64,000 bases of DNA, taken from assembly GCA_050015395.1 (NCBI GenBank), contig JBEKBM010000005.1:1-64000 (forward strand), given 5' to 3'. Below, one piece after another: positions 2,303 to 38,572 of the stretch. Numbering within the stretch: the stretch's first letter is position 1; every line of letters begins with the position of its first letter. The notes beneath the pieces are model-generated. The model searched no databases. It saw only the letters and a list, made by a program, of their open reading frames with translations, and had not been told where the DNA came from. The DNA comes from Candidatus Bathyarchaeia archaeon (lineage in GTDB: Archaea > Thermoproteota > Bathyarchaeia > Bathyarchaeales > Bathycorpusculaceae). Position numbers and translations under genes: made by a program.

Positions 2303-2331
2303 AAAAACGGCAAAATGGAGAAAGCCCAAAA

Positions 2332-6614: not shown

Positions 6615-7172
6615 TTACACGTATCCGACAGCTTTCTCTTCCTCCATTAGCCTACCTACTTCTTTTTCAACTTGCAACTGAGCTTTAAAGTGAGCGTTAT
6701 ACAAGTTAACAACCTTGTATAGCCAGTAAACTACCCCAACGCCCAACGTAACAATGGTAATCAAAACATAAGTTTTTATCGGTATCGTCTGGGTCATAAA
6801 CATCCGTTCTGGAAAAGCACTCGCAAGAAACTCGTCCTGATTTCGTTCATGCACCAATAAATCCATAGACAAAAGGTAAAGAATGACAAAAACTGGAACA
6901 ACTAAAACGATGCTGGCAGCCCACGCCTTTGCATTCCTCTCTGCAAAGCGTTCGCTTGTAGCAGGCGGCGGCTCTTTCCCATTGCTCTTCAAATAAGCAT
7001 TAATCTGCTTCTCTAGATCAGCCTCACGCTGAAAATGCCTATTCCTGCCCTCAATCAGGCGGTAGAACATGGGGAAAAACGCCAACCCGAAAGTAACAAT
7101 CGCAGCCAAAAACCACATGGAAAACCATATTTTCCTGTTAGCGTCAACTTTACTGTTCATAGCGGTTTCCAT
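6615..7172 (-). CDS. Membrane protein (DUF4234-like, two LGxxxxYW-type hairpin repeats)
   Basis: Hydrophobic segments IVTFGLAFF...HF and IVTLGVGVVYWLYK...HF; 13 bp upstream of cobD. Confidence 0.55.
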   Translation of the reverse strand: METAMNSKVDANRKIWFSMWFLAAIVTFGLAFFPMFYRLIEGRNRHFQREADLEKQINAYLKSNGKEPPPATSERFAERNAKAWAASIVLVVPVFVILYLLSMDLLVHERNQDEFLASAFPERMFMTQTIPIKTYVLITIVTLGVGVVYWLYKVVNLYNAHFKAQLQVEKEVGRLMEEEKAVGYV

Positions 7173-7255
7173 CTAAGTCAAACTACCCATTCAACTGCTT
7201 ACAAAGTTGGGGTAGCCAAACTTTATAAGTTCTTCCATTGGCATCTAAAGATAAA

Positions 7256-7954
7256 ATGAGCCGAAAGGAAATGTTGCTTTCCGTAATAATTCCCGTTTAC
7301 AACGAGGAATTAACCATAGGCAACATAATCGACCGCGTAAAAGCGGTGGTGCAGCAAACAGGCTTAAAAAACGAAATAATCATTGTGGACGACCACTCAT
7401 ACGACAAATCGCTTCAAGTAGCCAAAGCTCACAGCATCAAACTCTACACTTTAAAACAGCACTTGGGCAAAGGCTTTGCACTGCGAGCAGGGTTTGCCAA
7501 AGCAAAAGGCGACATAATAGTCACCATTGACTCAGACGGCTCACATCGACCAGAAGAACTTCCCGAAGTGTTGGAGCCAGTTCTGCAAGACAAAGCTGAT
7601 CTCGTTATAGGTTCAAGATACCTAAACCACAAACGAGTAGCTTCAAGGCGCCTAAACGCTTTCGGCGTTAGACTCTTCAACTATTTTATCCAGTTACTAA
7701 CCGACGTCGTCATTACTGATTCCCAGTCAGGTTACCGAGCCATGAAACGTGAAGTGCTGAAAAGCCAAAAGCTAAAGTCAGGCGAATACGAAATAGAATC
7801 AGAAATGCTCGTCAAAACAGCCAAAAAAAAATTCCGAATCGCTGAGGTGCCGATAAGTTTTGAGCAGCGAACCTACGGCAGGTCAGGAGTTGACCCAATG
7901 GTTGACGGATTCAAAATTCTCTTATCGATAGTTTCAGCGTACATGAAGGGTTAA
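7256..7954 (+). CDS. Glycosyltransferase family 2 (Dol-P-Man synthase-like)
   Basis: SVIIPVYNEE, VDDHS.D, DSDGSH, DSQSGYRA; ORF open from 7238. Confidence 0.9.
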   Translation: MSRKEMLLSVIIPVYNEELTIGNIIDRVKAVVQQTGLKNEIIIVDDHSYDKSLQVAKAHSIKLYTLKQHLGKGFALRAGFAKAKGDIIVTIDSDGSHRPEELPEVLEPVLQDKADLVIGSRYLNHKRVASRRLNAFGVRLFNYFIQLLTDVVITDSQSGYRAMKREVLKSQKLKSGEYEIESEMLVKTAKKKFRIAEVPISFEQRTYGRSGVDPMVDGFKILLSIVSAYMKG

Positions 7955-7959
7955 GCAAG

Positions 7960-8964
7960 TTGGCTGGCAACGTGTATCCTAAAGTTTCAATCATAGTTGC
8001 AGCCTACAATAATGAGCAAACAATCGAGGAATGTCTCAAATCAATTCTGGCGCTGGATTATCCCGCAGGCTTCATTGAAGCTATCGTCATGGACGGCGGC
8101 TCAAAAGACACCACTGTCAAAATAGCAGAAAATTTCCCTGTCAAAGTTGTTTCCATTCGATTAAACGCTCCAGCAGCCTACAATTACGCCCTGAAAATTG
8201 CCACGCACTCGGTTTTGGGCTTCATAGATGCAGATGCTAAAGTGGAATCGCAATGGCTAAGAAAGCTTGTACTTCACTTGGAAGAGCCTAAAGTGGCAGG
8301 AGTCAGCGGCAGCATAGAAACTTGGAATGCCCAAAACCCGTGGGCAAAAAGCATCGGTTACGAACTTAAAAACCGCTACAGCCGCATAGGAAAATACACA
8401 AGCCGCATAGCCACCATGAATCTGCTGCTGAAAAAAGAGGTTATCGAAGAGGCTGGCGGATGGGATGAAAACTTGCCAAGCCAATATGACACAGACTTAG
8501 GCTTCAGAATAAGCGCTAAAGGTTACAAAATCGCTTACGAACCAAACGCCATCTGCTACCACTACAACAGGCCGACAGTTCGAGCTTATTACAGGCAGCA
8601 GTTGCAATACGGAAAAAACACTTTAAAACTATACTTTAAACATGGACGCTTGGCCAAAGGTGATGAAATCACGGATTTTGGCATGAACATTCAGCCAGTA
8701 CTGCTCTTAGCTGTCATTGCGTTTTTCCTTCTGGGAATCATAGAAGTGCTTAGACCCTTGTGGTACATTTCAGGCTTAATTTTAGTCTTAATGCTTGTTT
8801 ACTTCGTTTACTCCGCCGCCAAAATTGCCGTTAAGTTCCATGATAAGGTAGCTTTGCGGTTGGTCGTGCTATATTTTGTGAGAGCGTTCGCTTGGTTTGT
8901 CGGCGCAATAATAACCACCATCAACTACGCTAGAGGCAAAGGGAGGAAAACGCCCAATGTGTAG
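7960..8964 (+). CDS. Glycosyltransferase family 2 with C-terminal TM helices
   Basis: SIIVAAYNNE, DGGSKD, FIDAD, GGWDE, RQQLQY; hydrophobic C-terminus. Confidence 0.9.
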   Translation: MAGNVYPKVSIIVAAYNNEQTIEECLKSILALDYPAGFIEAIVMDGGSKDTTVKIAENFPVKVVSIRLNAPAAYNYALKIATHSVLGFIDADAKVESQWLRKLVLHLEEPKVAGVSGSIETWNAQNPWAKSIGYELKNRYSRIGKYTSRIATMNLLLKKEVIEEAGGWDENLPSQYDTDLGFRISAKGYKIAYEPNAICYHYNRPTVRAYYRQQLQYGKNTLKLYFKHGRLAKGDEITDFGMNIQPVLLLAVIAFFLLGIIEVLRPLWYISGLILVLMLVYFVYSAAKIAVKFHDKVALRLVVLYFVRAFAWFVGAIITTINYARGKGRKTPNV

Positions 8965-10150
8965 GGTATGCTTCGTCTCGCCTGAGTATTGGCCCCTGTC
9001 TGGTGGAACAGGCGCCTACGTTTACTATCTATCAAACGAGCTTATAAAAAACGGTTATAAAATCTACGTAGTCACAGGCTCCGACCAAACATTAGACATC
9101 AAAGTCAACGAGCAATTAAAGGTGTTTTTCCTAAAAATCCCAAAAGCGCCTGTCATAAAATCGTTTATGCTTGCAGCCTCCAGCTACCGCAAACTAAACA
9201 GCGTCCGCGAAAGGGTTAACGTAGATATTACGCACGCTAACTTGCCGTTAACTCCGAACTTTGCAGTGCCGCCGAACTTTGGAAAAACGCTTGTTTGCAC
9301 CGTTCACTCAACATGGAAGGGTGAAGCACAAGCCATACGGGGCGAACCCTACAGCAGGCTTAACGCTAACGAGAAGTTTATGGTTAGCTTCAACTGGTTT
9401 TTGCGGATTTTTGAGGAAAAAATGCTTGAGCGAGCAAACAAGATAATTGCGGTGAGTCATTTCACGAAGCGCGAGTTGCTTGAATACTACAAGGTGCCTG
9501 AAAAAAAAATCCGCGTTATCCATAATGGGGTTGATGTAAACAAGTTCAAGCCCGCAAAAGATAAGCGCAAAATCAAGGAGGAGCTTGGCTTTAAAGGTGA
9601 TGATTTAGCTATAGTGTCGGTGGGCAGGCTCTATGCACGCAAAGGCTTGTTTACGCTTATCGAAAGCATGCCCGCAGTCGTTAAGCGCTTTAAAAACGCG
9701 AAATTCATAATTTCAGGCAAAGGGCAAAGTGACGAAATGCGTAAGCTTGTCAATTATGCTGATAGAATTGGGGTAAAAGGTAGCATAATTTTCACGGGTT
9801 ACTATCCAGACAAAAAACTGCCCAAACTCTACCAAGCTGCGGATGTGTTTGCGTTTTCCACGTTCTATGAGCACCATCCTTTCGCTGTTCTCGAAGCTCT
9901 TTCAACCGGCTTGCCCGTAGTAACAACCAGAGTGGGCGGAATTCCAGAAACAATTGAAAGCGGGAAAAACGGGTTCTTAGTTGAGCCGTTCAATCCAAAA
10001 CAATTCGCCGATAGGATACTGTATTTGCTAGAACACCCAGCTGAAGCTTCGGAAATGGGGTCTCTTGCCCGAAAAACTATCCTAGAACGCTTTGATTGGC
10101 GCATAGTCGTCAAGGACGTGCTCAAAGTCTACGATGAAGCCTTAAAGTGA
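8957..10150 (+). CDS. Glycosyltransferase family 4
   Basis: GG.G.Y, IHNGVD, VGRL...KG, E.HPFAVLEALSTGLPVV. Confidence 0.92.
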   Translation: MCRVCFVSPEYWPLSGGTGAYVYYLSNELIKNGYKIYVVTGSDQTLDIKVNEQLKVFFLKIPKAPVIKSFMLAASSYRKLNSVRERVNVDITHANLPLTPNFAVPPNFGKTLVCTVHSTWKGEAQAIRGEPYSRLNANEKFMVSFNWFLRIFEEKMLERANKIIAVSHFTKRELLEYYKVPEKKIRVIHNGVDVNKFKPAKDKRKIKEELGFKGDDLAIVSVGRLYARKGLFTLIESMPAVVKRFKNAKFIISGKGQSDEMRKLVNYADRIGVKGSIIFTGYYPDKKLPKLYQAADVFAFSTFYEHHPFAVLEALSTGLPVVTTRVGGIPETIESGKNGFLVEPFNPKQFADRILYLLEHPAEASEMGSLARKTILERFDWRIVVKDVLKVYDEALK

Positions 10151-10214: not shown

Positions 10215-11024
10215 TTATTGCTTATATCCTATCGCTTGGAAATGACCACCTAAAGCAAGAGCATCCGACCTATTGCTTAATTCAAATTCAATATTCAGCA
10301 GTTGTTGATAGAACTCATTTGAGTATTTCTCGCTAAACGTTAACTTTGGCGAAATAGCAAGTGGCATAGTGAAGAGTTTTCCCATAATTTTTTCTACCCT
10401 GATTTCGTTTTTTTCCAGCAATTGCTTAAATTCATCGGGAGACAATGCATAAACTTTCAGACTATTATTCATGATAAATTGGCTTTCTTTTGACAGCAAT
10501 CTAAATGCATAATCGGCACCTTCGGTTTGGAGGGTTGAAAGAGACAACACGTAACGATTTTGACCGCCTATGATTAAGGGGCAGCCTCTTTTTAGAACTC
10601 TCACGAGTTCTCTTATTACCATTTCTTGTTCCTTGATGAAACAAAGGGCATGTTCGCAGAACACCAAATCGAAGGTTTGGTCTTCAAAATCAAGTTTTAG
10701 AAGGTCACACTCTTTAATTTCGATATTTTGTTGCAAGCCTGCTTGGTTTATTTTCTCTTTAGCCACTTTCAACATTCCTGTAGAAGCATCGCCCAAAATA
10801 ACCTTCGGACCACATTTTGCAATAGGGATGCTCCATTTTCCTGTTCCACCTGCGGCATCGAATACAAGTGCCTTTGAATTAGTAGGAACATAAGGCTTTG
10901 TTAGGTTCCATGTGATTGCATCATAAACGTTACTCCATAATTGTTTACAATAGTTATCATAGGTCGAACTTTTTTTATCATAATAATCCTTCACTTCTTG
11001 CTTGTTGGAAAACATCACAATCAC
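10215..11024 (-). CDS. Class I SAM-dependent methyltransferase
   Basis: VFDAAGGTG motif I, GDASTGML, FDLVFC, RVLKRG. Confidence 0.85.
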   Translation of the reverse strand: MIVMFSNKQEVKDYYDKKSSTYDNYCKQLWSNVYDAITWNLTKPYVPTNSKALVFDAAGGTGKWSIPIAKCGPKVILGDASTGMLKVAKEKINQAGLQQNIEIKECDLLKLDFEDQTFDLVFCEHALCFIKEQEMVIRELVRVLKRGCPLIIGGQNRYVLSLSTLQTEGADYAFRLLSKESQFIMNNSLKVYALSPDEFKQLLEKNEIRVEKIMGKLFTMPLAISPKLTFSEKYSNEFYQQLLNIEFELSNRSDALALGGHFQAIGYKQ

Positions 11025-11139: not shown

Positions 11140-12105
11140 CTAAGCGGTTTGTATGGGCTCTTTTCTGTATGCAATGGTTATTTTCTGGAAAAGCTTCACT
11201 ACATCCAGAGAGCAAAATAGCATTTTCGTTAAAAATTCATGTTGATATATTTTCATCTGCGCTTTAACTGGCAAATCGATTCTCGGAGGCTCAAATTTGC
11301 GCATTACCGCATTTACCTGCAAGCCCTCCACCCTGACTGCCTCCTTTTGCAAGCCTGTTTTTTTCGCAATATAGTTGAGGTATGTTTGTTTCCAGTCTAA
11401 TTCCATGATTTCCGCTGCAGTTATATCGATAGCTAAGGCGTCATTGCTGGTCAGCATTAAGTCCATTTTGACGGGTTTGCCTTTTGTTGGACCATTTCCC
11501 TCAATCCCAACTCTCGCATCCATGACTGTTAACTGCGGCTTAAAGATGGAGTATAACCTGTAGAAAACTTCCGGCAGATACGGGTGAAGGTAAATGCGCT
11601 TGTTGCTTGGGACGCAACCGAAAAGGTTTTTTATGGCTCCACTGTACATTGCAAACTCATGCGTTTTCATCAAAGGCAAATCCACAACCGCATCCGCATC
11701 CAACACGGTTTTTGGCAAAAACAGCTCCTTCACTGGAGTGCTGTTGGTTGGAAATTTTACTTTAACCACTTTGTCCTCTGAAAGATTAATCACGCTGCCG
11801 CCTGCTTTCTTTACGGCTGTTTCTATCCCTGTTTTTTCAAACGCTGAGTTGCACGGATAATTAAACCCGTTAGATTCGCCAACTATTACTTCCTTGGCGC
11901 CGTCTCGAAGTAAACTAACCAGTTCACCTAGCAGTTGGGGGCTTGTTACTACGCCGGGAAGGTACTCTGGGTGGCTCATGTTGGGTTTGACAAAAATTTT
12001 CTGTTTCCCACGTAACCCTGACTCATCAACGGCTTCCTTTAAGATTTCGCTTATGCCGTTTTTGGCTCGAAAGATTTTAACCGTTTTCTGTTCTGTGTTA
12101 GGCAC
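11140..12105 (-). CDS. DUF362 domain protein
   Basis: VKPN, VTSP, GES, LPLMKTH, GAIKNLFG, EGNGP. Confidence 0.85.
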   Translation of the reverse strand: MPNTEQKTVKIFRAKNGISEILKEAVDESGLRGKQKIFVKPNMSHPEYLPGVVTSPQLLGELVSLLRDGAKEVIVGESNGFNYPCNSAFEKTGIETAVKKAGGSVINLSEDKVVKVKFPTNSTPVKELFLPKTVLDADAVVDLPLMKTHEFAMYSGAIKNLFGCVPSNKRIYLHPYLPEVFYRLYSIFKPQLTVMDARVGIEGNGPTKGKPVKMDLMLTSNDALAIDITAAEIMELDWKQTYLNYIAKKTGLQKEAVRVEGLQVNAVMRKFEPPRIDLPVKAQMKIYQHEFLTKMLFCSLDVVKLFQKITIAYRKEPIQTA

Positions 12106-12107
12106 AC

Positions 12108-13532
12108 CTATGCACCCTTCACTTGTTTTCCCATTATGCAGCCTGGGTCGGAATTTAGCATGTCACCGTTATGGTATGCAGCTGACCGCGCTCTGCACCC
12201 GCCGCAAATATACTTGTAGGCGCATATTCCGCAGGCTCCCTTTAAGTTTCCCCTGTTCCTTAAGGCTTTGAAGAGTGTTGAGTTTAACCATATATCTTGG
12301 AACTTCTCAGTTTTCAGGTTGCCCACGTTTATGGGTAGGAAGACGCATGGGTGGACATCTCCCTGCGGCGAAAGTGAACAGTACAATCTTCCAGCTCCGC
12401 ATCCGCCGATGAAATCTGCTAGTGGAACAGCTTTCTTGCTTACTCTCGCCGTCTGCATGTGCGCCATAGACATGGTCACTTCCCCAGTTCCCGCGGTCCC
12501 TTGACATTGCAAGGCTACTCGGGCTAGCTGCGGCGCCGTGGTGAGAATGGTTGTTTTGCAGCCAGTTGACATCCTGTTTAGCAAGTAACGCATAAGCTTC
12601 TCTCGCTCTTCCGCCGACAAATCCTGGTCATAGTGAGCTTTTCCGCGTCCGGTTGGAATGAAGTTGAAGTAGGTGAATCTTTCGGCGCCAACTTCTTCAG
12701 CTAAGGTCACGATTGCAGGCACTTCTTCAAGGTTGCTTTTAGTAGCCGTGGTAGCTATGCAGGCGCATAAATCCGCTTCCACACAATTCCTAAGTCCACC
12801 CACAGCTTTCTCGAACGCGCCAGGTACTCCCCTGAAAGTGTCATGTGTTTTTGCGGTGGCGCCGTCAATGCTTATTTCGACGTAGTGTATTCCGGTTTGT
12901 TTTATTTTTTTGACGTTTTCTTTGGTTAGCAGGGTTCCGTTTGTAGCTACGGAAACGTATAAGCCGCTTTTAACTGCGTGGTTTGCCACTTCAAAGAAGT
13001 CTTTTCGGCTCAGGGGTTCGCCGCCTGAAAAGGCAAGTGCTGTAACTCCAGCGTCTGCAAGCTGATCCACGACTGCCATGGCTTCTTTGGTTGTTAATTC
13101 TTCTTCGTTTACTGCGCCGCTATTTGAGTAGCAGTGTTTGCAGTTGAGGTTGCATTTATGCGTGAAATCCCAAACAATCAAGAGCGGTGCATAAAGCGAA
13201 AGCGGCTTTTTAATGCCCATGTACGCGAAGCTTTTAGTCAAGTCCATAACTGCCCTCTGAGCGTACGGGTCAGCCAATAGTTTCTCGACTTTTTCCCGCT
13301 TAATGTTTAGGCTTCTTCTTAGGAACTCAACCCAAAAACCAATAATCTGCGAGTAAAGAACACTGCACTTCTCACAGGCACGATCAGTTTTTCCCGCATA
13401 AGCGTCCAATGCTGCTTCAAGAACCGTTCTGCCGCATGCAGGGCACTTATTGAGCGATAGCTTTAGCATTCTTTTGGTCATGGGCAACGTTATCACTGCA
13501 TTCCAGAAGGTGTCGTAGCTTAGTATGCTCAT
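12108..13532 (-). CDS. Radical SAM/SPASM protein with Cys-containing N-terminal extension (resembles the archaeal GMGT-synthase-like subfamily)
   Basis: WDFTHKCNLNCKHCY, FSGGEP, GGCGAGR...PCVF, CGIC...CGGCRAR...DPGC; N-terminal CPACG and CEKC. Confidence 0.85.
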   Translation of the reverse strand: MSILSYDTFWNAVITLPMTKRMLKLSLNKCPACGRTVLEAALDAYAGKTDRACEKCSVLYSQIIGFWVEFLRRSLNIKREKVEKLLADPYAQRAVMDLTKSFAYMGIKKPLSLYAPLLIVWDFTHKCNLNCKHCYSNSGAVNEEELTTKEAMAVVDQLADAGVTALAFSGGEPLSRKDFFEVANHAVKSGLYVSVATNGTLLTKENVKKIKQTGIHYVEISIDGATAKTHDTFRGVPGAFEKAVGGLRNCVEADLCACIATTATKSNLEEVPAIVTLAEEVGAERFTYFNFIPTGRGKAHYDQDLSAEEREKLMRYLLNRMSTGCKTTILTTAPQLARVALQCQGTAGTGEVTMSMAHMQTARVSKKAVPLADFIGGCGAGRLYCSLSPQGDVHPCVFLPINVGNLKTEKFQDIWLNSTLFKALRNRGNLKGACGICAYKYICGGCRARSAAYHNGDMLNSDPGCIMGKQVKGA

Positions 13533-13650: not shown

Positions 13651-14283
13651 TTAGCAACATACGTTCGAGTTTTTTTCTTTTATTATTCTTTCGGCAATTT
13701 CTAAATCTTTGAGCGTGTTAATATTTAGGAGTACTTCAACTTCTTTTGTGATTAAGGCGCTTGTTTCAATTTTGCCTTCGCCTTGAATTTTGGCGCCGTT
13801 AACGATGTTGACTCCTGAGACAGCATACCACTCGCCTTTGTACTCGTCAGTGGAAGAAACTGAGAGCCCCAAGCGTTCACGACTTTCGATAGGTACAAAG
13901 ACTGCTAAGAAGTCTTTTCCGCAAACCTCAAACTGACCGATGGCTTTGTCCAGAAACTTGCCTGTGATGGCTGGTAAATCCGCTGGAATGGTCAGCACAG
14001 GACCCATTAAACCAGCTGTAAGAGTGGCTTGCTTTAAGTCATCATGATACCCCTTTGCCTCCGTCCGCAAAACCTTCCATCCTTTGCTAAGGCAGTGCTT
14101 TTCAGTTTTAGGAGTGTTCATGCTGGTCACTACATAAAACTCTGAAACCTTCTCGGCACAAGCAAGAGCCTCAGCAACCCAATCAATCAGCGGTTTACCT
14201 AAAAAAGGCAAAAGCGGCTTCTCCACTGGCAAACCCATGCGTTTACCTTTTCCGCCAGCCATAATCAACGCAGGAACTTTCAT
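13651..14283 (-). CDS. cobY: CobY-like NTP transferase (adenosylcobinamide-phosphate guanylyltransferase paralog 2)
   Basis: MAGGKGKRM..EKPL, ADLP, GVNI, NINT..DL; overlaps the upstream cobS-like gene. Confidence 0.75.
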   Translation of the reverse strand: MKVPALIMAGGKGKRMGLPVEKPLLPFLGKPLIDWVAEALACAEKVSEFYVVTSMNTPKTEKHCLSKGWKVLRTEAKGYHDDLKQATLTAGLMGPVLTIPADLPAITGKFLDKAIGQFEVCGKDFLAVFVPIESRERLGLSVSSTDEYKGEWYAVSGVNIVNGAKIQGEGKIETSALITKEVEVLLNINTLKDLEIAERIIKEKNSNVCC

Positions 14284-15110
14284 ATTAGCACCAACACGCC
14301 TGCAAGCAAAATAAGCGTAACTGCCCTAGCCACCTCGTTGGTTGCCCCAATCGTGTCGCCAGAAACGCCGCCGAAAACGCTTTCCGCAACTTTCTCCATC
14401 ACAAACGCTATAGGAATGCTGACTAAAACCATTCCGACACCGATTAAACCCAAATAGGGTTTACCTGTAAAAGTAAAAAACGGGAAAACAATCAAAACAG
14501 AGAGTCCATAAGCGATAATGTTGAGCTTCTTTTTGGCTTTCTGGAGAAAAATCGAGCCTAATCCTTTATGTGTAGGTTTTCCAATCCAGACAATCGTAAC
14601 CATGGCTAATTTTGCTGAGAGTTCGGCTGCAATTATGCCTCCGAAAGCGAAAAGCGGGTTAATTAAAAATAAGCCTGCAAAAGCGGCAAACTCCACAATT
14701 ATCGCAAGTAATGCTCCCCAGTAAGTTACGGTCCAGGCGTGAGCAACCATTTTGCGGTCATGCAAATTTCTAAGCCCAAACGCGTTGCCTAAATCGATTA
14801 AGCCGTCAAAATGTTGGAGTCCCGTTAAGACAAGCAGGAAAGCCACGGTCATCGCAGCAACCGCAAGCTTTGCTAGTAAGTCAGTTGGCAAGGCAATGAT
14901 TGGGTTAACTAAACTGAGCAGAAAATGAACAATAATGCTCGCGCCGAGAAAGTAAGCGCCGGCAAGTATGCCTATGAATGCGCCGATTATGGGGAATAGG
15001 TACATGTGCTCGGCTGTGGTGAAAATGAAATCTTCCTTTCCGCCCACGGGGATAATGGTTAGGAAGGACAGTAAATCCCTAAAAGTTTTTATAGCTTTCA
15101 CTGGCGACAT
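14280..15110 (-). CDS. cobS: CobS-like membrane protein (cobamide synthase paralog 2, altered motifs)
   Basis: FLTIIPV, FPIIG, TGLQHFDGLID, GGVSGDTIGATNE. Confidence 0.75.
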   Translation of the reverse strand: MSPVKAIKTFRDLLSFLTIIPVGGKEDFIFTTAEHMYLFPIIGAFIGILAGAYFLGASIIVHFLLSLVNPIIALPTDLLAKLAVAAMTVAFLLVLTGLQHFDGLIDLGNAFGLRNLHDRKMVAHAWTVTYWGALLAIIVEFAAFAGLFLINPLFAFGGIIAAELSAKLAMVTIVWIGKPTHKGLGSIFLQKAKKKLNIIAYGLSVLIVFPFFTFTGKPYLGLIGVGMVLVSIPIAFVMEKVAESVFGGVSGDTIGATNEVARAVTLILLAGVLVLI

Positions 15111-15158
15111 ATACCCTACAACTAATTGAAAGATAATATAGACTTTGTCGTGAATTGT

Positions 15159-16091
15159 ATGGGGGAACTTAAAGGGAAAAAAATTCTAGTCACTGGTGGA
15201 GCAGGTTTTATAGGTTTTCACTTGTGCAAAAGGCTTTCAGACTTAACGTCTAACTTGAGTATTTATGATAACTTATCAAGTGGCAGAAAGGAAAACGTGA
15301 AAGACGTTCCCAAAGCTAAGTTCGTCAAAGGCGACATATTGGACCTGAAAAGGCTTCGTTCTTTAGAGAAGGCTGATTTAATTTATCATTTAGCTGCGCA
15401 AGTTGTTGTTCCTTACTCGATGGAGAATCCACTGGAAGATTTTGAAACAAACGCTAAAGGAACTCTCCAAGTTCTTGAGAAAGCACGCAAAGACGATGCA
15501 AAACTAGTTTTCGCTTCCAGCGCAGCAGTCTATGGCAATCCAACTGTATTTCCAACTCCAGAGGAATACGGTTTTCACCCCTTTTCATGCTATGGGTTAT
15601 CCAAAGTAGTCGGCGAAGAATACTGCCAAATGTACCAAAACCAATACGGTCTAGACATCACCATAATGAGGTTTGCTAACGTTTACGGGTCAAGGTGCCA
15701 CGGGGTCATCCATGACTTTCTAGATAAAATCGCTAAAAACCCAGGTAAACTAGAAATCATCGGCACTGGACTGCAGTCACGCGATTTTGTTCATGTTTCC
15801 GATGTGGTGGATGCTCTGGTAACCGTTGGCTCAGATGATTCTGCTAACGGTAAAACTTACAACATAGGCTTTGGAACAACAACCACGATAATAGACTTGG
15901 CCAAAATGATGCTCAAAATCCTCAACTTTCAAGCCAAGACATTCATTACAACAACCAATGTTTCTTGGCAGGGTGACGTAACAAAAATTTGGTTTGACAA
16001 CTCCAAAGCAAAGAAAGAGTTGAAATGGAATCCCAAGGTAAGCCTTGAAGATAGCATAAGAGAAATTATCGCTGAGAGGAAACTTTCGTAA
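15159..16091 (+). CDS. NAD-dependent epimerase/dehydratase (GalE-like extended SDR)
   Basis: VTGGAGFIG, HLAAQ, SSAAVYG, YGLSK, RDFVHV; ORF open from 15126. Confidence 0.92.
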   Translation: MGELKGKKILVTGGAGFIGFHLCKRLSDLTSNLSIYDNLSSGRKENVKDVPKAKFVKGDILDLKRLRSLEKADLIYHLAAQVVVPYSMENPLEDFETNAKGTLQVLEKARKDDAKLVFASSAAVYGNPTVFPTPEEYGFHPFSCYGLSKVVGEEYCQMYQNQYGLDITIMRFANVYGSRCHGVIHDFLDKIAKNPGKLEIIGTGLQSRDFVHVSDVVDALVTVGSDDSANGKTYNIGFGTTTTIIDLAKMMLKILNFQAKTFITTTNVSWQGDVTKIWFDNSKAKKELKWNPKVSLEDSIREIIAERKLS

Positions 16092-16966
16092 TGGCTACTG
16101 CGGTGCCAGCTAGAGGATTAATCGCTCTCTTGCGTCTTCCCTACTGGCTGATGACTGGTGGTTTATCTCTTTTAACAGCTTTCGCCATCACCAAAAACCC
16201 TCTTAGCCTCAGCATACAAACAGACTTGCTAATTTTCTTTTCCATGGCATTCATAACATCCGCAGGCTTCGCAATCAACGACTACTTTGACAGAGAAAGC
16301 GATGCAGTAATCAAGCCTAAACGCCCCATACCCTCAGGTGCACTCTCGCTAAAGCAAGTAGTGGCAATCTCAGGATTACTTTTTACTTTAGGTCTGATTA
16401 TGGCTTTTTTTATTAACTGGCTAAGCTTCGCAATAATCGCTGTTGATTCCCTGCTGCTATTGATTTACTCAACGCTTGTAAAGCGGAAATCAGGCTTTGT
16501 TGCTAACGTTTTGGTTGGCGTTTTAACAGGCACAGCCTTCATGTATGGAGAAGCCACCATCTCAGGCACTGTAAGCTTGATTTCCTTAAGCCTCTACCCA
16601 ATAGCTTTCGGCACTATAGGCGGCAACGTCCTGCGAGACATCCTAAGCCTTGATGGCGACTCAAAGATTGGTTATCCAACACTCCCGAAGAAAATCGGCA
16701 TCAGCAACTCGACGAAAGTCGCCGCTTTATTCTTTACGTTGACTGGGTTGCTTGCGCCTCTTCCCTACTTCATAGGCAAGTTTACAATTTACTATTTGCC
16801 TCCCATTCTCTTATGGAGCGTTCTTTTAATTTACTGTTCAATCCGTCTTGCAACCTCAGCTTCAACAGTGTCTAATGTGCGAAAATATGAGCGAATAGTT
16901 ACTATGTCGATGATTCTTCTTCCGTTAGCATTAATAATCGAGGCAACACTTGGAGGGTTATTATGA
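16091..16966 (+). CDS. UbiA-family prenyltransferase, DGGGP-synthase-like
   Basis: INDYFDRESD..KPKRPIPSG; second motif RDILSLDGD...TLP; about 8 TM segments. Confidence 0.82.
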   Translation: MATAVPARGLIALLRLPYWLMTGGLSLLTAFAITKNPLSLSIQTDLLIFFSMAFITSAGFAINDYFDRESDAVIKPKRPIPSGALSLKQVVAISGLLFTLGLIMAFFINWLSFAIIAVDSLLLLIYSTLVKRKSGFVANVLVGVLTGTAFMYGEATISGTVSLISLSLYPIAFGTIGGNVLRDILSLDGDSKIGYPTLPKKIGISNSTKVAALFFTLTGLLAPLPYFIGKFTIYYLPPILLWSVLLIYCSIRLATSASTVSNVRKYERIVTMSMILLPLALIIEATLGGLL

Positions 16967-18429
16967 CCAAAACCAAAAGCGTCTGTCCTGAATGCCAGAA
17001 AAAAATTGATGCCGAATTAACCGAAGTTAACGGGAAAATTAAAATCACTAAACAATGTCCTGAGCATGGAGTTTTCGAAGCTACTCACTGGCAAAGCCCA
17101 GGCGTCTTTAATCACATGCAAACTTATGACCAATTCCAATATCTTGGCGACTTAAACGCCCCGAAAAACCCTGAAGGCTGCCCATATGTCTGCGAATCGT
17201 GCACTAATCATGCTTCAGGCACTGTCATAGGAGTCATCGACGTAACCAAACGATGCAACTTAAAATGTGCCGTCTGCTTCTCCACGTTTCCCCAACAAGA
17301 AGTTGATTATGAACCAACAAAACAAGCCCTCGTAAACATGCTGGAGTTCGTAAGCAAAGCTAACCCCAAGCCTCCAGCCATCCTGTTCTCAGGCGGCGAA
17401 CCCCTAGAACGCGAGGACATGCCTGAAATCATCGGCGTCGCCCATAAGCTGAAGTTTATGACTATTCTTGCGACCAATGGGACGCATTTGGCTGAGAACC
17501 CACAGTTAGCGGAGAGACTAAAAAATAACGGTTTGAACATTGTTTACTTACAGTTTGACAGTTTCCACGACGACTTTTACAAGAAAGTTAGAGGGCAAGC
17601 GCTCTTAGACCACAAACTAAAGGCTATTGAGGTATGCCGCAAATACGACATCGAAATAATCCTCGTCAACACATTAATGAAAAGTTTAAACGATAAAGAA
17701 GTCGGCGACATAATCAAGTTCGCTGCAAAAAACACTGACATAATCAGAGGCTTAATTTTCCAGCCAATCGCCTTTACTGGCCGAGCGACAGAAAACCCGT
17801 TTAGAGAAAACTTCCGCGAATGGTCTTTTGCAGAAGACGTGGAAAACCAAACGCAGGGAGAAATAAAAACTACCGATTTGTTTCCCATGTCAGTGATGAC
17901 TTCACCCATAAAGATAATGCGCAAGTTCATGAAAAAGCCTTGGCCACTATTCTCATGCAGCCCACAATGCGGCATCGTCAATTGGATTTACGTTACAAAA
18001 AAGGGCAAAATGATTCCAATTAACCGTTTCGTTAACTTTGACAGGTTCTTTAAAAGCATTCGCAAAACCGCCGAGTCTGCTGATTCTAAGGGCAAGATTT
18101 CGCTTCTTTCAACACTCTTCTTGGCATCGATGGAGTCGATGAACTGGTATTTAGTTACTAAAGAAGTCGGTATGTTGACTCTTACAAACGCAATTATGAG
18201 GATGCATCTTTCTCCATCCTACCAATCGCTTGGCAAGGTACGCAGAAGAATCTTCCTTTTAGGCTGCATGGCGTTTATGGATTCATACAACTTTGACGTT
18301 AACCGAGTTAGACGATGCGTAGTCCACTACATCACGCCAGACTTGAAAATCATACCATTCTGCGCATACAACAATATACATAGAGTTGCAATCGAAAAAG
18401 AGTACGCTGAAACTCATAAGAAGGCTTAA
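16963..18429 (+). CDS. tes: Tetraether lipid synthase (Tes/MJ0619)-like radical SAM enzyme
   Basis: CPEC...CPEHG, CPYVCESCTNH, DVTKRCNLKCAVC, YLQFD, FQPIAFTGR, PQCG, RRCVVHY..IPFCAYN. Confidence 0.8.
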   Translation: MTKTKSVCPECQKKIDAELTEVNGKIKITKQCPEHGVFEATHWQSPGVFNHMQTYDQFQYLGDLNAPKNPEGCPYVCESCTNHASGTVIGVIDVTKRCNLKCAVCFSTFPQQEVDYEPTKQALVNMLEFVSKANPKPPAILFSGGEPLEREDMPEIIGVAHKLKFMTILATNGTHLAENPQLAERLKNNGLNIVYLQFDSFHDDFYKKVRGQALLDHKLKAIEVCRKYDIEIILVNTLMKSLNDKEVGDIIKFAAKNTDIIRGLIFQPIAFTGRATENPFRENFREWSFAEDVENQTQGEIKTTDLFPMSVMTSPIKIMRKFMKKPWPLFSCSPQCGIVNWIYVTKKGKMIPINRFVNFDRFFKSIRKTAESADSKGKISLLSTLFLASMESMNWYLVTKEVGMLTLTNAIMRMHLSPSYQSLGKVRRRIFLLGCMAFMDSYNFDVNRVRRCVVHYITPDLKIIPFCAYNNIHRVAIEKEYAETHKKA

Positions 18430-18932
18430 CTTATTACTTGAATGTTTAAGACACAATAATCAGCGTGCGCGCTAAATTGGTAAGCTCCTGAATCTTGATT
18501 ATACTGCCAGAGCTCAAAAACCACCGAGTAGCTTCCAACTTGATTTTCCGTAACTGTGACTGACTTTTGCCAGCTTTGACCATTCCCTAAGGTCATATTA
18601 TACACTTCAGTGGGCTGAGTATTAACTGGAAAAGTTGTAAGGTCATTGGTGATTTTCACTAAAACCTGGTATTGCACGGTCCCTCCCATGTTGTTCACAA
18701 CGGTAACCGGCACGTTGAATGTGCTGTTCTGATTAGCAACCAAAACTGCAGGGTAATCAACGGCTTTGTTTTGTGAATCAAGCAAATAAATTGTGCTATA
18801 CCCCGCCGGCGCCGGCCTAAAAAACACAAAGTAACTTACAGCTAGTGCAGAAATAATTACTAAGGCAAGGAAAATGGCGACTGCATAGCCTTTTTCATCG
18901 TTTAAACCAATTTTTCTGCCAATATTCTTCAT
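18426..18932 (-). CDS. DUF1616-like membrane-anchored protein
   Basis: One TM helix then YLL.....DYP..L, V.N.MG...Y; track ORF to 19124 overlaps the GT2 gene, so the true start is probably 18932 or 18953. Confidence 0.65.
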   Translation of the reverse strand: MKNIGRKIGLNDEKGYAVAIFLALVIISALAVSYFVFFRPAPAGYSTIYLLDSQNKAVDYPAVLVANQNSTFNVPVTVVNNMGGTVQYQVLVKITNDLTTFPVNTQPTEVYNMTLGNGQSWQKSVTVTENQVGSYSVVFELWQYNQDSGAYQFSAHADYCVLNIQVIS

Positions 18933-19644
18933 TTTTTCTAACCATGTCGGCATCCAGAAGGCCCCTAAATATAGTGCTAAATATTTCAATTCCTGACTTA
19001 AATTTTTTGAGCTTGGTTTTCCCGTATTTTCGGGCTTTATACGTGGTGGAGACTTCAACCATGCTGTATCCTTCTTTGGCGAATTGTACAAGCATTTCAG
19101 TAGCGAAAGCCATGTCTCCCTCATTTAACTTAACATTGTCGATGGCCTCATGAGATATTGCTCGGAAACCAGATTGTGTGTCGCTTAGAAATTGGCTGTA
19201 GAAGAAGTCGAAAAAGAAGGTAATCACTTTGTTTCCAACAAAATTCATGAATCCCATGGCTTTGTTTGGGTCATACATGCGAGTGGCTAAAACCATGTCA
19301 GCGTCTGTCTGAATCATCCTATCCAGCAAGCGGTTGATGTGTTTTACCTCGTAGGTTCCATCGCCGTCAACCATCACAATAATGTTTCCTTTCGCGTTTT
19401 TCATGCCTGTTTTAAGAGCAGTACCATACCCGAGTCTTGGTTCAATAATAAGCTTGCAAAAACTTGTGTCTTTAACGATTTCTATTGTTCCGTCAGTGGA
19501 GTTGCCGTCAACAACGATTATCTCCTTTGGATATGCCAAATCTTTCTCGATGGTTGTGACAGCCTCTAAGATGTTTCCTGCTTCATTGAGTGTTGGAATT
19601 ACCACCGAGACCAGTTCTACTTTCGACGTCATGCTAACTCCCAT
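18895..19644 (-). CDS. Glycosyltransferase family 2
   Basis: SVVIPTLNEA, VDGNSTDGT, DGDGTY, DTQSGFRA. Confidence 0.9.
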   Translation of the reverse strand: MGVSMTSKVELVSVVIPTLNEAGNILEAVTTIEKDLAYPKEIIVVDGNSTDGTIEIVKDTSFCKLIIEPRLGYGTALKTGMKNAKGNIIVMVDGDGTYEVKHINRLLDRMIQTDADMVLATRMYDPNKAMGFMNFVGNKVITFFFDFFYSQFLSDTQSGFRAISHEAIDNVKLNEGDMAFATEMLVQFAKEGYSMVEVSTTYKARKYGKTKLKKFKSGIEIFSTIFRGLLDADMVRKNEEYWQKNWFKR

Positions 19645-19673
19645 CGTAAGGCTATATTATTTCATTATCTTGG

Positions 19674-20831
19674 TTAAATAAGTTCTTCGTATATCCCAAT
19701 AAGTGTTTCAACGTTTTTATCCCAACTAAACTTTTCTTCCATTACTGCTCGAAGCTCTAATTTGCGTGAAGAAAAATCAATATTAGAAAATTCCAAAATT
19801 GCTTTTGCAAGCAGTTCAGGCTGGTTAGATGGCACTAATTTTCCGTAATCTTCCATTAAAATTTCACTTATTCCTCCAACGTTTGTGGCTATTACTGGCA
19901 ACCCGCAAGCCATGGCTTCGAGCGCAACCAAAGGCAAGCCTTCTCCTGATTTTGATGGTAGCACAAAGAAGTCTGCCGCGTTATAGTAAAACGGTAAATC
20001 TTCATCTTTAACAAAACCTGTAAGCCTAAAATTGTTTTCTATCCCTAACTGTCGTATTCTCATTTGAACGTTGTTTAGGTCTGGTCCTTTTCCAACGACT
20101 AGAAAAGTAATCTTTGGGTTCTTTCTGACTGCTATGTTTGCGCTTTCTATTAATGTGTCAATACCGTTTTTGTAAACAAGCCTTCTAACGGTTAAAACGA
20201 CGATTGAGTTTTGGGAAATTCCCAGTTTTCTTCTCATTTCTTCTCGTTTTCCAGTCAAGGGCCTGAAATGAACCAAGTCAACGCCGTTGTGTAACACTTT
20301 AATCTTCTCTGGTTTTGCTCCTAAACTTAGGACATAATCCTTGGTTGCATTGCTCACAGTGATTATTTTGTCGGCTTCTTTTAGCGTCTCCTTTCCAACT
20401 GCCAAATCGTTTAACCGTTCAACACTGTCAAAAATGCTGTCATATTCAATGAAGGTGTTATGTTGCGTCAGCACAAATGGCTTAGAGTACCTCTTCGCAA
20501 GCTTAGCTGCAATAAGCGACGTAAGGTACGGGTGACCATGCGCATGGACTATTTCACTTGATTTTACAGCTTTAAGAAAAGTTTCAAGACTTGTTACTGT
20601 CGGAATCGAGTAGGGTATTCCCAGACGGAAACCAGTGTTTAACGATTCATAACACTCAACCTTAATGCCGTCAACAACATAACTTTTCGGTGTATCAATT
20701 CGGTTTGTTATCACCATGGGTTCAAAGTTATTCTGTAGTAGCCGCTTGTTCTGCTCATAAACAACCCTTTCTATTCCGCCAATATGGGGTAGAAAAGTAT
20801 GTGTAACAATGCAAAGCCTTGTTTGAACCAT
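19674..20831 (-). CDS. Glycosyltransferase family 4
   Basis: PHIGGIE, HNGVD, EGLPLVALEAMACGLPVI; ORF open to 20858. Confidence 0.92.
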   Translation of the reverse strand: MVQTRLCIVTHTFLPHIGGIERVVYEQNKRLLQNNFEPMVITNRIDTPKSYVVDGIKVECYESLNTGFRLGIPYSIPTVTSLETFLKAVKSSEIVHAHGHPYLTSLIAAKLAKRYSKPFVLTQHNTFIEYDSIFDSVERLNDLAVGKETLKEADKIITVSNATKDYVLSLGAKPEKIKVLHNGVDLVHFRPLTGKREEMRRKLGISQNSIVVLTVRRLVYKNGIDTLIESANIAVRKNPKITFLVVGKGPDLNNVQMRIRQLGIENNFRLTGFVKDEDLPFYYNAADFFVLPSKSGEGLPLVALEAMACGLPVIATNVGGISEILMEDYGKLVPSNQPELLAKAILEFSNIDFSSRKLELRAVMEEKFSWDKNVETLIGIYEELI

Positions 20832-21053
20832 GGAAGCCCAACTGCTTAAACTCCTCAATCAACATAGTATTATAACCTTATGGTAAAACAAAGTCTCGTC
20901 ATTAACAGCTAAGGTGGTGTACTTTTTGTTACTTAAACTATCAAGCAAATAGCATATCCCCTCCCCTACCTCAATTTAACTATAGAAACTCTCTAGTAAC
21001 ATTGACTTATCCTACATAGGCTGCCTGCAAAAATTAAATCGGAAAAAAGTGTT

Positions 21054-21551
21054 TTATGGTTTAGCTTGTGCGTTTTTAGTGGCGCGTGTATAAACGTTTG
21101 ATGATACGCCTGCAACTAAAGCGCCTATAGCGTCGTTTGTGATTGAGCCGAGCTTCTTTAGAATCCCCGGTTTAGCTTGGTCAAACCGTACGTATTCGAA
21201 AACTGCTCTGGTTCCACCGATGTAGCTAGCAATTGCTATTCCTAAAACTTCGTCAGCAACTGGTCCTGGTCTACCCCTGAACCTTTCTTGCGTCAATCCT
21301 GGAATAAGTCCCTTCTCTGCATCTTCCTGCGCATGGAAAGCAGCCGTTTCAAGGATGCAAACATTAACATCATTCAGAACATCGAGAAATTCTTCCCTGA
21401 GCATTTCAACGGCTTTTTCTTCCGTTTCCACTCCTGGATGAGGCACAAACATTTCAAGCGCACAGTGAATGAGGCTTTTTAGGGAAATGTCTTTTTTTTC
21501 AAGGTATTCAAGTAATGGTGGCGTTTCCTTGTTCATATTATTCACTCTCAT
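21054..21551 (-). CDS. cobZ: Archaeal alpha-ribazole phosphatase CobZ (PgpA-like)
   Basis: DVNV, ADEVLG..IASYIGG, RFDQAKPGIL..LG...DAIG; divergent from the cobT-cobS-cobY operon. Confidence 0.78.
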   Translation of the reverse strand: MRVNNMNKETPPLLEYLEKKDISLKSLIHCALEMFVPHPGVETEEKAVEMLREEFLDVLNDVNVCILETAAFHAQEDAEKGLIPGLTQERFRGRPGPVADEVLGIAIASYIGGTRAVFEYVRFDQAKPGILKKLGSITNDAIGALVAGVSSNVYTRATKNAQAKP

Positions 21552-21869: not shown

Positions 21870-22547
21870 ATGAAAGTTGTTGCTTCATGGAGTGGCGGAA
21901 AAGACAGTTGCTTTGCATACTACAAGGCAACCCAGCAAGGCTACGAAGTAGTCAACATTTTAACCATGATGATGAGTGAAACCAAATCAAACTTCCACAT
22001 GATACCATCAGGCATAATAGACGCGCAATCAGACGCCATTGGAATTCCATTAGTAAAACAGAAGGCTACGCCTGAAACCTACGAGAACGATTTCAAAGGC
22101 GCATTGCTACGGTTGAAAGCTAAAGGCGTAGAAGGCTTAGTTACAGGGGATATTTACGAAGTGGCAGGGCATGAGGAAGGTTGGCTGAACCGGGTCTGCA
22201 AAGAAGTCGGCTTAAAACCAGTAAAGCCCCTGTGGATGGGTGACACAAAACAGATTTACCTTGATTACTTAAAGAGCGGTTTCAAAGCGACCGTAGTGCG
22301 CACCAAACTGGAATTGTTAGGCATGGAGTGGCTCGGAAGACAACTAGACAAAAAATTCTACGACGACATCCTTAAGCTTGGCAACGTTGACGCCTGCGGC
22401 GAAGGCGGCGAATACCACACCGTCGTGACTGACGGACCAACGTTTAAGAAAAAGATTGAAATTCTAGAAACACAAAAACATAAGCTCGACGGCGGCTTCG
22501 GATACTTAGAAATCAAACGATTCGAAGTCAAGCCGAAGGCAAGGTAA
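21870..22547 (+). CDS. DUF71/Dph6-like PP-loop ATPase, canonical motifs (B12-associated subgroup)
   Basis: SWSGGKDS, VTGDI, DACGEGGEYHTVVTDGP; first gene of the cobT operon. Confidence 0.9.
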   Translation: MKVVASWSGGKDSCFAYYKATQQGYEVVNILTMMMSETKSNFHMIPSGIIDAQSDAIGIPLVKQKATPETYENDFKGALLRLKAKGVEGLVTGDIYEVAGHEEGWLNRVCKEVGLKPVKPLWMGDTKQIYLDYLKSGFKATVVRTKLELLGMEWLGRQLDKKFYDDILKLGNVDACGEGGEYHTVVTDGPTFKKKIEILETQKHKLDGGFGYLEIKRFEVKPKAR

Positions 22548-22556
22548 AACTCAAAA

Positions 22557-23657: not shown

Positions 23658-23664
23658 ATTTGGC

Positions 23665-35782: not shown

Positions 35783-35791
35783 AGAAAGTTC

Positions 35792-36205: not shown

Positions 36206-36260
36206 CTTTTCACCGTAAAACAGTTAATGCCCAAAGGGGTTTTAGCAATCTCATTGTTGA

Positions 36261-38509: not shown

Positions 38510-38550
38510 ATCACGTCATATATTGAGGCTTTGGCTGTCTTTAAGCACAT

Positions 38551-38572
38551 GTGATTGCATAGTTACAGTCAC
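38551..38572. promoter_or_regulatory. 22-bp imperfect palindrome, site A (GTGATTGCATAGTTACAGTCAC), 6 nt before TTAAAG on the minus strand
   Basis: Inverted repeat; same motif and spacing at 39629 and 53512. Confidence 0.65.

Follow-up and report, generated by a model that had tools for sequence, protein, structure and literature searches.

The DNA analysed here is a stretch of 64,000 nt (the window; G000:C5:1-64000) from the genome of a Candidatus Bathyarchaeia archaeon, which is 2.59 Mb in size and 98.9% complete. Its minus strand carries a gene for CobS2, a diverged paralog of cobamide-5'-phosphate synthase (14280-15110, 276 aa; PF02654, TIGR00317), followed by a gene for CobY2, a paralog of GTP:adenosylcobinamide-phosphate guanylyltransferase (13651-14283, 210 aa; MobA-like NTP transferase family, 62.4 bits). 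The start of cobY2 overlaps the stop of cobS2 by 4 nt. The canonical cobamide gene set lies about 6-9 kb away, with CobT, CobS1 and CobY1 at 22557-25031 on the plus strand. An earlier note on this DNA had described CobS2 and CobY2 as a second CobS/CobY pair with rewired catalytic motifs. The second pair is real: the two proteins belong to PF02654 and the MobA-like family, and are 35% (CobS2 to CobS1) and 38% (CobY2 to CobY1) identical to the canonical copies. As detailed below, CobS2 is a conserved paralog, kept by selection, whose substrate loop carries clade-fixed changes; the rewiring did not extend to CobY2.

CobS2 matched PF02654 over its full length (residues 14-266 of 276, 93.8 bits). 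Aligning it with CobS1 bore out the motif letters of the earlier note, HFDGLIDLGNA and AHAWTVTYWG in CobS2 for HTDGLLDFGDG and MHDQLTGAGG in CobS1, as well as an insertion of 18 residues past the first transmembrane helix. Two larger alignments were used for the individual positions. The first held 143 sequences (19 full-length members of the CobS2 clade, 122 other CobS and 2 fragmentary representatives that were set aside), and the second compared 16 CobS2 sequences with 47 canonical CobS (27 from Bathyarchaeia genomes and 20 representatives). The HxDxxxDxxD motif of loop 2 reads HxDxxxDxxN in CobS2: at its last position (D87 in CobS1 numbering), Asn was found in 19/19 and 16/16 CobS2 sequences, and Asp in 120/122 other CobS and 47/47 canonical sequences. 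Among all representatives, Asn at this position was confined to the CobS2 clade; one canonical representative has Glu. The earlier note had made its reading depend on conservation of the substitutions in orthologs, and in this respect it was borne out.

The segment at the end of loop 2, M102-H-D104...G108, is absent from CobS2. Its Met is deleted or replaced by Ala. Position 104 is Ala in 9, Val in 5, Arg in 3 and Asp in 1 of the 19 clade members, with one residue not listed (Asp in 117/122 other CobS), and it varies among Ala, Val, Arg and Glu across the 16 orthologs of the second alignment. G108 is replaced by Thr, Ser or Tyr (Gly in 121/122 other CobS). All 47 canonical sequences retain the series H, D, D, D, M/L, D, G, and all 16 CobS2 sequences lack M-x-D...G. 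Two acidic residues of the loop are thus gone, and aromatic ones have appeared. The note had also reported a lost GxxG; the two Asp losses stand, and the GxxG is lost only in part, as G108 and G110 are altered and G111 stays. The CobS2 clade retains H100, D102, G103, L104, D106, E163, K167, G251, D252, G255, N258, E259 and R262, and the GxxGDxxG motif of loop 6 is present, with G248, G251, D252 and G255 invariant or nearly so.

Mutant data exist for Salmonella CobS, where the first motif is given as 80-HxDxxxDxxD-89 and a second conserved segment as residues 98-106, which includes M104 (PMC8092220). There the D82A, D86A and D89A variants gave no cobamide-dependent growth, D229A in GxxGDxxG was null, and M104A was impaired at low cobinamide (PMC8092220). 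D87 of CobS1 corresponds to Salmonella D89; of these elements, CobS2 has the D229 motif and is missing the D89 equivalent and the M104 segment. Automatic annotation in the source databases names CobS2 'adenosylcobinamide-GDP ribazoletransferase', a label that is probably too specific. We assigned CobS2 to the CobS family by homology and, because a defining motif is not present, did not file it under that activity. The CDP-alcohol phosphotransferase domain PF01066 was not found in CobS2; the genome has it in two genes at other loci.

Purifying selection acts on CobS2. The pairwise ratio of nonsynonymous to synonymous substitution rates (dN/dS), one of the checks that the earlier note had proposed, was 0.06-0.16, similar to that of CobT, CobS1, Tes2 and UbiA2 (the latter two are described below); these values are rough, as dS is saturated at 1.2-2.8, and they lie well below 1. 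An AlphaFold2 model of CobS2 built from 81 sequences was all-helical (predicted local distance difference test score, 95.8). A Foldseek search of the model against the PDB gave no match at E ≤ 0.001, a wide VIA-align comparison gave a best Z of 7.7 (4q2e, CDP-diacylglycerol synthetase), which is within the noise range of helical bundles, and no solved structure matching the CobS2 sequence was found. In the literature consulted, we found no described CobS paralog of this kind and no lipid-linked CobS; one study of Bathyarchaeota (10.1101/2025.10.20.683597), in its available part, treats B12 radical S-adenosylmethionine (SAM) lipid enzymes and not CobS.

A search of 1.84 billion representatives with CobS2 returned 17 proteins at E ≤ 1e-30, mostly fragments, beyond which the scores fell to ordinary CobS. 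Among 201 genomes of the class, CobS2-type matches (at least 43% identity) occurred only in one family (f1) and in one genus (g20) of another family (f5). Within the order, a CobS2-type gene was present in 33/121 genomes (19 of f1 and 14 of g20), and a CobS2 fragment at a contig end of G148 made a 34th carrier. All 34 carriers also have a second, canonical-type CobS, which was motif-intact in the 15/15 whose copy was aligned. Canonical CobS alone was found in 8/121 genomes and no CobS in 79/121; none of the 121 relies on CobS2 alone. Phylogeny, another check proposed earlier, placed the f1 and g20 CobS2 sequences in one clade with a long stem (FastTree); f1 CobS1 and the canonical CobS of g20 belong to separate clades. 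The motif-intact CobS of g20 stands alone, with no cobT or cobY neighbours, and is divergent from genes for a corrinoid protein and an MtrH-family methyltransferase (G090:C1:428000-434800 and its kin). On TIGR00317 (cut-off 110), CobS1 scored 156.5 bits, the g20 canonical CobS 140.7, CobS2 110.3, and the g20 CobS2 ortholog, whose open reading frame was called from an internal start, 91.3.

No loss of conserved residues was seen in CobY2. It scored 124.2 bits on TIGR00454 and 101.1 on NF045495, and CobY1 scored 144.3 and 116.3, all below the cut-offs. Residues 4-203 of CobY2 align with the Methanocaldococcus jannaschii CobY (MjCobY) structures 2mzb and 3rsb (E 9e-19 and 4e-18). In the CobY tree, 16 CobY2 and 21 CobY1 sequences form two clades, each with 100/99 support. 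The g20 genomes have a single CobY-family gene, which is of the CobY2 type and adjoins CobS2 (10/10 genomes). They also have one TIGR01140-type CobD, of the CobD2 type (5/5), one CobT (5/5), two CbiB in 4/5 genomes and one in the fifth, and two CobS in all 15 carriers; five of the ten sole-CobY genomes were checked for CobT and CbiB, and all ten have a canonical-type second CobS match. Provided that g20 organisms finish cobamides at all, CobY2 and CobD2 would do the canonical jobs there.

The two CobY types have also been exchanged between operons. In four of ten genus-g1 loci examined (G094, G102, G133 and G172), a CobY1-type gene, 67-74% identical to CobY1, stands behind cobS2. The canonical operon of G102 consists of Dph6-like, CobT, CobS1, CobY2-type and CbiB2 genes. 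The swapped loci keep the 4-nt cobS/cobY overlap, and one inversion with its ends at both cobS|cobY junctions would give such a reciprocal swap. The swap is tolerated, and it puts CbiB2 and a CobY2-type gene in a cobamide operon. Because CobY2 is the sole CobY of g20 and because the CobY types swap operons, we infer that it behaves as an ordinary adenosylcobinamide-phosphate guanylyltransferase. The proposal that the whole CobS2-CobY2 pair was rewired is not supported, on the same two observations, the sole CobY2 in 10/10 g20 genomes and the exchange in four species.

CobD2, an L-threonine-phosphate decarboxylase paralog (5516-6601, minus strand), scored 282.3 bits on TIGR01140 (cut-off 290.55). 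Its structure matches were 3ftb and 1lc5, together with 6oux, which is deposited as 'threonine phosphate decarboxylase-like enzyme'. CobD1 scored above the cut-off (313 bits) and adjoins CbiB1 on contig C27. CobD-derived aminopropanol-phosphate had been suggested as a candidate free donor for CobS2; this idea is weakened, since CobD2 is the sole TIGR01140-type CobD in 5/5 g20 genomes and must also feed cobamide synthesis there.

A second CbiB, CbiB2, is encoded outside the window on contig C23 (G000:C23:45990-47099, L059:11988-13100, minus strand; 370 aa, extended by about 50 aa at the N-terminus). The end of C23 and the start of the window have 114 nt in common, which places CbiB2 about 5.5 kb upstream of window position 1. 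It passed two CbiB cut-offs, with 230.3 bits on TIGR00380 (cut-off 165.9) and 278 bits on PRK01209.2-5 (cut-off 273). The gene shares an operon with a B12-binding radical SAM gene, and an IS6 transposase gene, a methyltransferase gene and another B12 radical SAM gene are nearby. In f1, 10-20 kb separate the orthologs of CbiB2 from CobD2, and in g20 their distance to CobS2 is about 23 kb; B12 radical SAM paralogs surround them in both lineages. A CbiB2-type gene (at least 56% identity) was found in 33/34 CobS2 genomes, the exception being G166 (92% complete), and also in two genomes that yielded no CobS2, G151 and G245 (90% and 86% complete); no other lineage had it. The co-occurrence counts given here and below derive from two lineages, and kin within them are not independent.

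Two further observations were made around CbiB2. The IS6-family transposase gene (G000:C23:47286-48434, L059:13287-14435; 121.7 bits, cut-off 125) separates CbiB2 from the rest of the island and is a sign of recent rearrangement there. B12-binding radical SAM paralogs occur both in tandem and dispersed (window 890-3702, plus strand; G000:C23:44483-45931 and 50765-52141), with at least 9 in the genome by tblastn. They resemble BchE-, HpnJ- and lipid-type enzymes, all below the cut-offs, and are concentrated around CobD2 and CbiB2 in f1 and g20.

The genome has second copies of four consecutive late-pathway enzymes, CobD, CbiB, CobY and CobS, and single copies of CobT, CobZ and CbiZ. Only CobS2 among the four duplicated enzymes has lost family-defining residues. 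Stable duplication is confined to the two integral-membrane enzymes, CbiB and CobS, and the soluble ones are either shared or exchangeable. With CbiZ and without a CobQ scoring above the cut-off, the genome is that of a corrinoid salvager; it is rich in B12 radical SAM genes. These three features, the stable duplication of CbiB and CobS only, the loss of defining residues in CobS2 only, and a salvager rich in B12 radical SAM genes, led us to the explanation that we favour, to which we give an even chance: CobS2 and CbiB2 may form a second membrane arm of nucleotide-loop-type chemistry, using a GDP-activated donor made by CobY, in which the acceptor or the donor moiety near the reaction centre is changed.

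In this scheme, CobS2 would be a neofunctionalised paralog of cobamide-5'-phosphate synthase. The soluble steps would be ordinary and shared, with CobD making aminopropanol-phosphate and CobY guanylylating the aminopropanol-phosphate ester. CobS2 would take the GDP-activated aminopropanol-phosphate donor, most simply adenosylcobinamide-GDP (AdoCbi-GDP), form a phosphodiester and release GMP. Retention of the GDP-activated donor is most likely, because H100, D102, D106, E163, K167, G251-D252, N258, E259 and R262 are kept. A change in the acceptor or in part of the donor is suggested by the loss of two acidic residues from the loop and the appearance there of aromatic ones; the altered cytoplasmic loop would accommodate a different hydroxyl acceptor, or a different donor part nearest the reaction centre, and the product would not be an ordinary cobamide with alpha-ribazole-phosphate.

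On a rival view, CobS2 is an ordinary isozyme: its products would be the cobamide-phosphates that CobS1 also yields, and it would persist because of dosage, a different regulatory regime, or a separate CbiB2-CobS2 membrane complex that supplies the many B12-dependent radical SAM enzymes of the island. CobS2 is a member of the CobS family by PF02654, and its TIGR00317 score is at the cut-off (110.3 versus 110 bits); it occurs only in genomes that also have canonical CobS; the genome is a corrinoid salvager; and B12-binding radical SAM genes are numerous around CbiB2, CobD2 and the start of the window. Against this, CobS2 lacks an Asp that is essential in Salmonella and the M-x-D segment, and both losses are fixed over deep divergence. 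Moreover, all 34 carriers retain another CobS, which in g20 is a canonical CobS of another clade, and the g20 CobS2 ortholog falls below the TIGR00317 cut-off, its open reading frame having been called from an internal start. We regard the isozyme view as rather improbable.

The neighbours of cobS2 on the minus strand follow the order CobS2, CobY2, radical SAM/SPASM protein, DUF362 protein, methyltransferase, as first described. The radical SAM/SPASM protein (12108-13532; PF04055 and PF13186) is closest to the AhbD/NirJ tetrapyrrole-modifying group and has a Cys-rich N-terminal extension; it scored 307 bits on TIGR04545 (cut-off 500), and its gene is syntenic in both f1 and g20 loci. Syntenic with it is the DUF362 gene (11140-12105, minus strand; PF04015, 168 bits), and DUF362 is in one Pfam clan with the LarA N-terminal domain (PMC11770544). 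The class I SAM methyltransferase gene (10215-11024, minus strand) showed no conservation at that place in other f1 loci, and in one g20 locus the radical SAM gene is adjoined by an unrelated methyltransferase gene.

Head to head with cobS2, on the plus strand, stands a unit of three genes. The first encodes an NAD-dependent epimerase/dehydratase of the short-chain dehydrogenase/reductase type (Epim; 15126-16091; PF01370, 195 bits; galE-like, 177.7 bits, below the cut-off), whose true start is likely the ATG at 15159. The second encodes UbiA2, a prenyltransferase resembling digeranylgeranylglyceryl phosphate synthase (16091-16966; PRK12884, 171.5 bits); it is the most diverged of three genomic paralogs, the other two of which (contigs C13 and C7) scored 235 and 226 bits on PRK12884. 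The third encodes Tes2, a tetraether lipid synthase paralog (16963-18429; NF045702, 465.9 bits, cut-off 450); the canonical Tes on contig C23 scored 673 bits. Kept beside Tes2 on the minus strand are genes for a DUF1616 membrane protein, an AglJ-like family 2 glycosyltransferase (GT2) and a family 4 glycosyltransferase (GT4) (18426-20858). On the other side of the methyltransferase lies a conserved plus-strand trio, an AglJ/Dol-P-hexose-synthase-like GT2, a membrane GT2 and a GT4 (7238-10150). Divergent from these glycosyltransferase genes and always upstream of cobD2 is hyp185 (6615-7172, minus strand), a small DUF4234-like membrane protein for which profile and database matching gave no lead beyond that likeness.

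The intergenic region between cobS2 and the epimerase gene (15111-15158) contains an element, CAC.A.AAA..CTATAT, about 28 nt upstream of the cobS2 ATG, with 14 invariant columns in 8/8 aligned f1 loci; it may be promoter-like. A second TATA-like motif, GGTATA, overlaps the cobS2 start. An Rfam scan of the window gave zero matches at gathering score, and hence no cobalamin riboswitch.

The comparison of gene order covered 15 loci, each from a different genome (f1, 11; g20, 4). Six units recurred: Epim-UbiA2-Tes2, CobS2-CobY2, hyp185-CobD2, GT2-GT2-GT4, rSAM-DUF362 (rSAM denoting the radical SAM/SPASM gene) and DUF1616-GT2-GT4. In f1, cobS2 and Epim are divergent and 32-50 bp apart. In g20 the gene order is reshuffled, with the same genes within 20 kb, and cobS2-cobY2 converge on cobD2-hyp185; hyp185-cobD2 and GT2-GT2-GT4 diverge in both lineages. 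Genera g3 and g7 have the CobD2/glycosyltransferase block and CobS2 on different contigs and retain both. Genes for a pyridine-nucleotide oxidoreductase and a HemN-like protein between Tes2 and CobS2 in g20, with GatB just beyond the cluster, were dropped as insertions that are not common to the loci. Tes2, UbiA2 and CobD2 are paralogs whose housekeeping copies are elsewhere in the genome. Tes2-type genes (at least 46% identity) were found in exactly the 34 genomes with CobS2 or its fragment and in 0/87 others of the order, and CobD2-type genes in the same 34. The lipid and glycan connection raised in the earlier note is thus borne out as a tight genetic linkage. It leaves room for a lipid or glycan acceptor of CobS2. 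A link to butanetriol lipids (butanetriol dibiphytanyl glycerol tetraethers, BDGTs) was considered, and the parts of the literature available gave no tie to these genes.

A further reading is that CbiB2 and CobS2 build a cobamide-type bridge of amide, aminopropanol and phosphodiester onto a non-nucleotide; we consider it possible and rather doubtful. In one form, cobinamide-phosphate would be tethered to the lipid or glycolipid of the Epim-UbiA2-Tes2 and glycosyltransferase genes, and the island's many B12 radical SAM enzymes that are associated with the membrane would, if this is true, be served by a base-off corrinoid anchored there. In the other form, a non-corrinoid carboxylate would be joined to an archaeal lipid or glycan via aminopropanol-phosphate.

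The non-corrinoid case, the main rival of the explanation that we favour, was weighed in its own right. Here CbiB2 and CobS2 would apply the same amide, aminopropanol-phosphate and phosphodiester chemistry to another carboxylate and another alcohol, for example by joining a glycan or glycolipid that bears a uronic acid to the lipid of Epim-UbiA2-Tes2 and the glycosyltransferases, with CobD and CobY seeing the aminopropanol-phosphate end only. Conservation of the cluster in 15 loci of two families despite reshuffling is in line with this, as are the 32-50 bp intergenic region with its invariant element that cobS2 shares with Epim-UbiA2-Tes2, the divergence of hyp185-cobD2 from GT2-GT2-GT4 in f1 and g20, and the occurrence of Tes2-type and CobS2-type genes in the same 34/121 genomes. 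In g20 only the membrane enzymes, the would-be recognisers of the variable groups, stay duplicated, and no phosphatidylserine decarboxylase was found in the 98.9%-complete genome. Set against these points, CobY2 and CobD2 must serve cobamide synthesis in g20, G102 has CbiB2 and a CobY2-type gene in an operon with CobT and CobS1, CbiB2 passes both CbiB equivalog cut-offs, and the co-occurrence amounts to effectively two events. In addition, M. jannaschii CobY needs an adenosylated corrinoid for binding, which argues against a CobY blind to the acyl group. Altogether the non-corrinoid bridge is conceivable, and we would not expect it. A simpler, Kennedy-like form, with GDP-aminopropanol or GDP-ethanolamine as the donor to a lipid or glycan, was downgraded as a main explanation by the sharing of CobY and CobD in g20, by CbiB2 and by the cobY swap.

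The explanation that we favour, a second membrane arm with an altered acceptor or donor moiety, must face several points that weigh against it. The HxDxxxDxxD loop has been interpreted, in the Salmonella study, as contacting AdoCbi-GDP (PMC8092220), and the change could then sit in the donor and not in the acceptor. Asp to Asn is a conservative replacement, and CobS2 might still make ordinary cobamides. If both arms use the same donor and linker, the retention of CbiB2 needs its own explanation, such as a separate membrane complex. The lipid and glycan linkage of CobS2 is left unexplained by a purely cobamide role. Finally, the two lineages may have inherited or exchanged one genomic island, which would make the co-occurrence weak functional evidence.

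The canonical operon (21870-25031, plus strand) encodes a Dph6-like PP-loop ATPase, CobT, CobS1 and CobY1. It is conserved across the order, and the complete four-gene set was present in 12/19 fetched CobS1 loci. Upstream of it, on the minus strand, is a single-copy gene for a CobZ-like alpha-ribazole phosphatase (21054-21551; TIGR03161, 121.2 bits, cut-off 152.5). The Dph6-like ATPase of the operon (21870-22547, plus strand) is one of three such paralogs in the window; the others are at 21-737 (plus) and 4623-5366 (minus), the latter following cobD2, and a fourth lies at about 97 kb on the same contig. All belong to the diphthine-ammonia-ligase family and fall under the equivalog cut-off. The position of an amide-forming ATPase in a cobamide operon suggests a possible role in re-amidation of salvaged corrinoid acids. 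Directly past cobY1, at 25084-25965 on the minus strand, is a gene for a TIM-barrel protein resembling AP-endonuclease-2 and xylose isomerase, which had only weak nfo-like matches to profile hidden Markov models (HMMs); a gene of this kind occupies the same place in G187. The cobamide-remodelling enzyme CbiR is a member of this superfamily (PMC7733943), and the TIM-barrel protein may be an archaeal CbiR-like candidate.

Remodelling also offers an explanation for CobS2 itself, which would exchange the lower-ligand nucleotide of complete environmental cobamides, or otherwise act on complete cobamides, and not on AdoCbi-GDP. The same source mentions a Vibrio cholerae CobS with cobamide-remodelling activity (PMC7733943). 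The genome is that of a salvager with CbiZ, and a gene of the AP-endonuclease-2 family stands beside cobY1. No specific pointer to such a role was found, and both CbiB2 and the lipid/glycan linkage would be left unexplained. The remodelling CobS of V. cholerae is, besides, a canonical CobS, which counts against this explanation. We consider it very unlikely.

Many other envelope-glycan functions are encoded in the window outside the CobS2 cluster. The regions 34883-39551 and 56850-63718 hold genes for two GH130 mannoside-phosphorylase-like proteins, one GH127/GH88-like protein and a GT4, followed by those for a PF00953 transferase of the GT4 family, AglB/STT3 and an OST3/OST6-like protein.

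CobS is regarded as a signature gene, with a single function, of organisms that produce or salvage cobamides, and the CobS2 clade has a fixed change at an essential residue of its motif. This would mean either an undescribed cobamide-like product or nucleotide-loop chemistry reused outside B12. New in this analysis are CbiB2, the occurrence of only one CobY and one CobD in g20, the exchange of cobY types between operons and the retention of canonical CobS in every carrier; the pattern of duplication narrows the question to two enzymes, CbiB and CobS. Bathyarchaeia rank with the most abundant archaea of sediments and rely heavily on corrinoids, and their lipids serve as biomarkers. If corrinoid finishing enzymes are linked to a second Tes/UbiA lipid module, this would matter to both the corrinoid and the lipid biomarker fields.

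The nearest known systems are the CobS proteins of Salmonella enterica and archaea (PF02654/TIGR00317), with which CobS2 shares family, length class and a polytopic, all-helical membrane architecture. It keeps the His and first two Asp of loop 2, GxxGDxxG with its essential Asp, and E163, K167, N258, E259 and R262, and its gene is translationally coupled to cobY. It differs in the third Asp of HxDxxxDxxD, which is Asn, in the replacement of M-x-D...G by AHxW.VT, and in a TM1-TM2 hairpin extended by 18-20 residues. Its gene, unlike canonical cobS, stands head to head with lipid genes, its carriers always also have a motif-intact CobS, and its HMM score is at or under the equivalog cut-off. The end-to-end alignment of CobY2 with MjCobY (MJ1117; 3rsb and 2mzb; E 1e-18) takes in the N-terminal MAGGKGxRMG; CobY2 differs in forming a clade apart from the CobY1 of other Bathyarchaeia.

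The CDP-alcohol phosphotransferases of the Kennedy pathway resemble CobS2 in principle, as membrane enzymes that transfer an NDP-activated phospho-alcohol to a hydroxyl by means of an Asp-rich metal motif, and have no homology to it. Another parallel is the norcobamide pathway of Sulfurospirillum multivorans, where SMUL_1544, a CobD paralog, changes the linker; in both cases a paralog of a nucleotide-loop enzyme would change the cobamide, and CobD2 is also a CobD paralog. In S. multivorans, reportedly only CobD is specialised, and CbiB, CobU and CobS are shared. In the present case it is the other way round: the duplicated enzymes are CbiB and CobS, and the shared ones are CobD and CobY.

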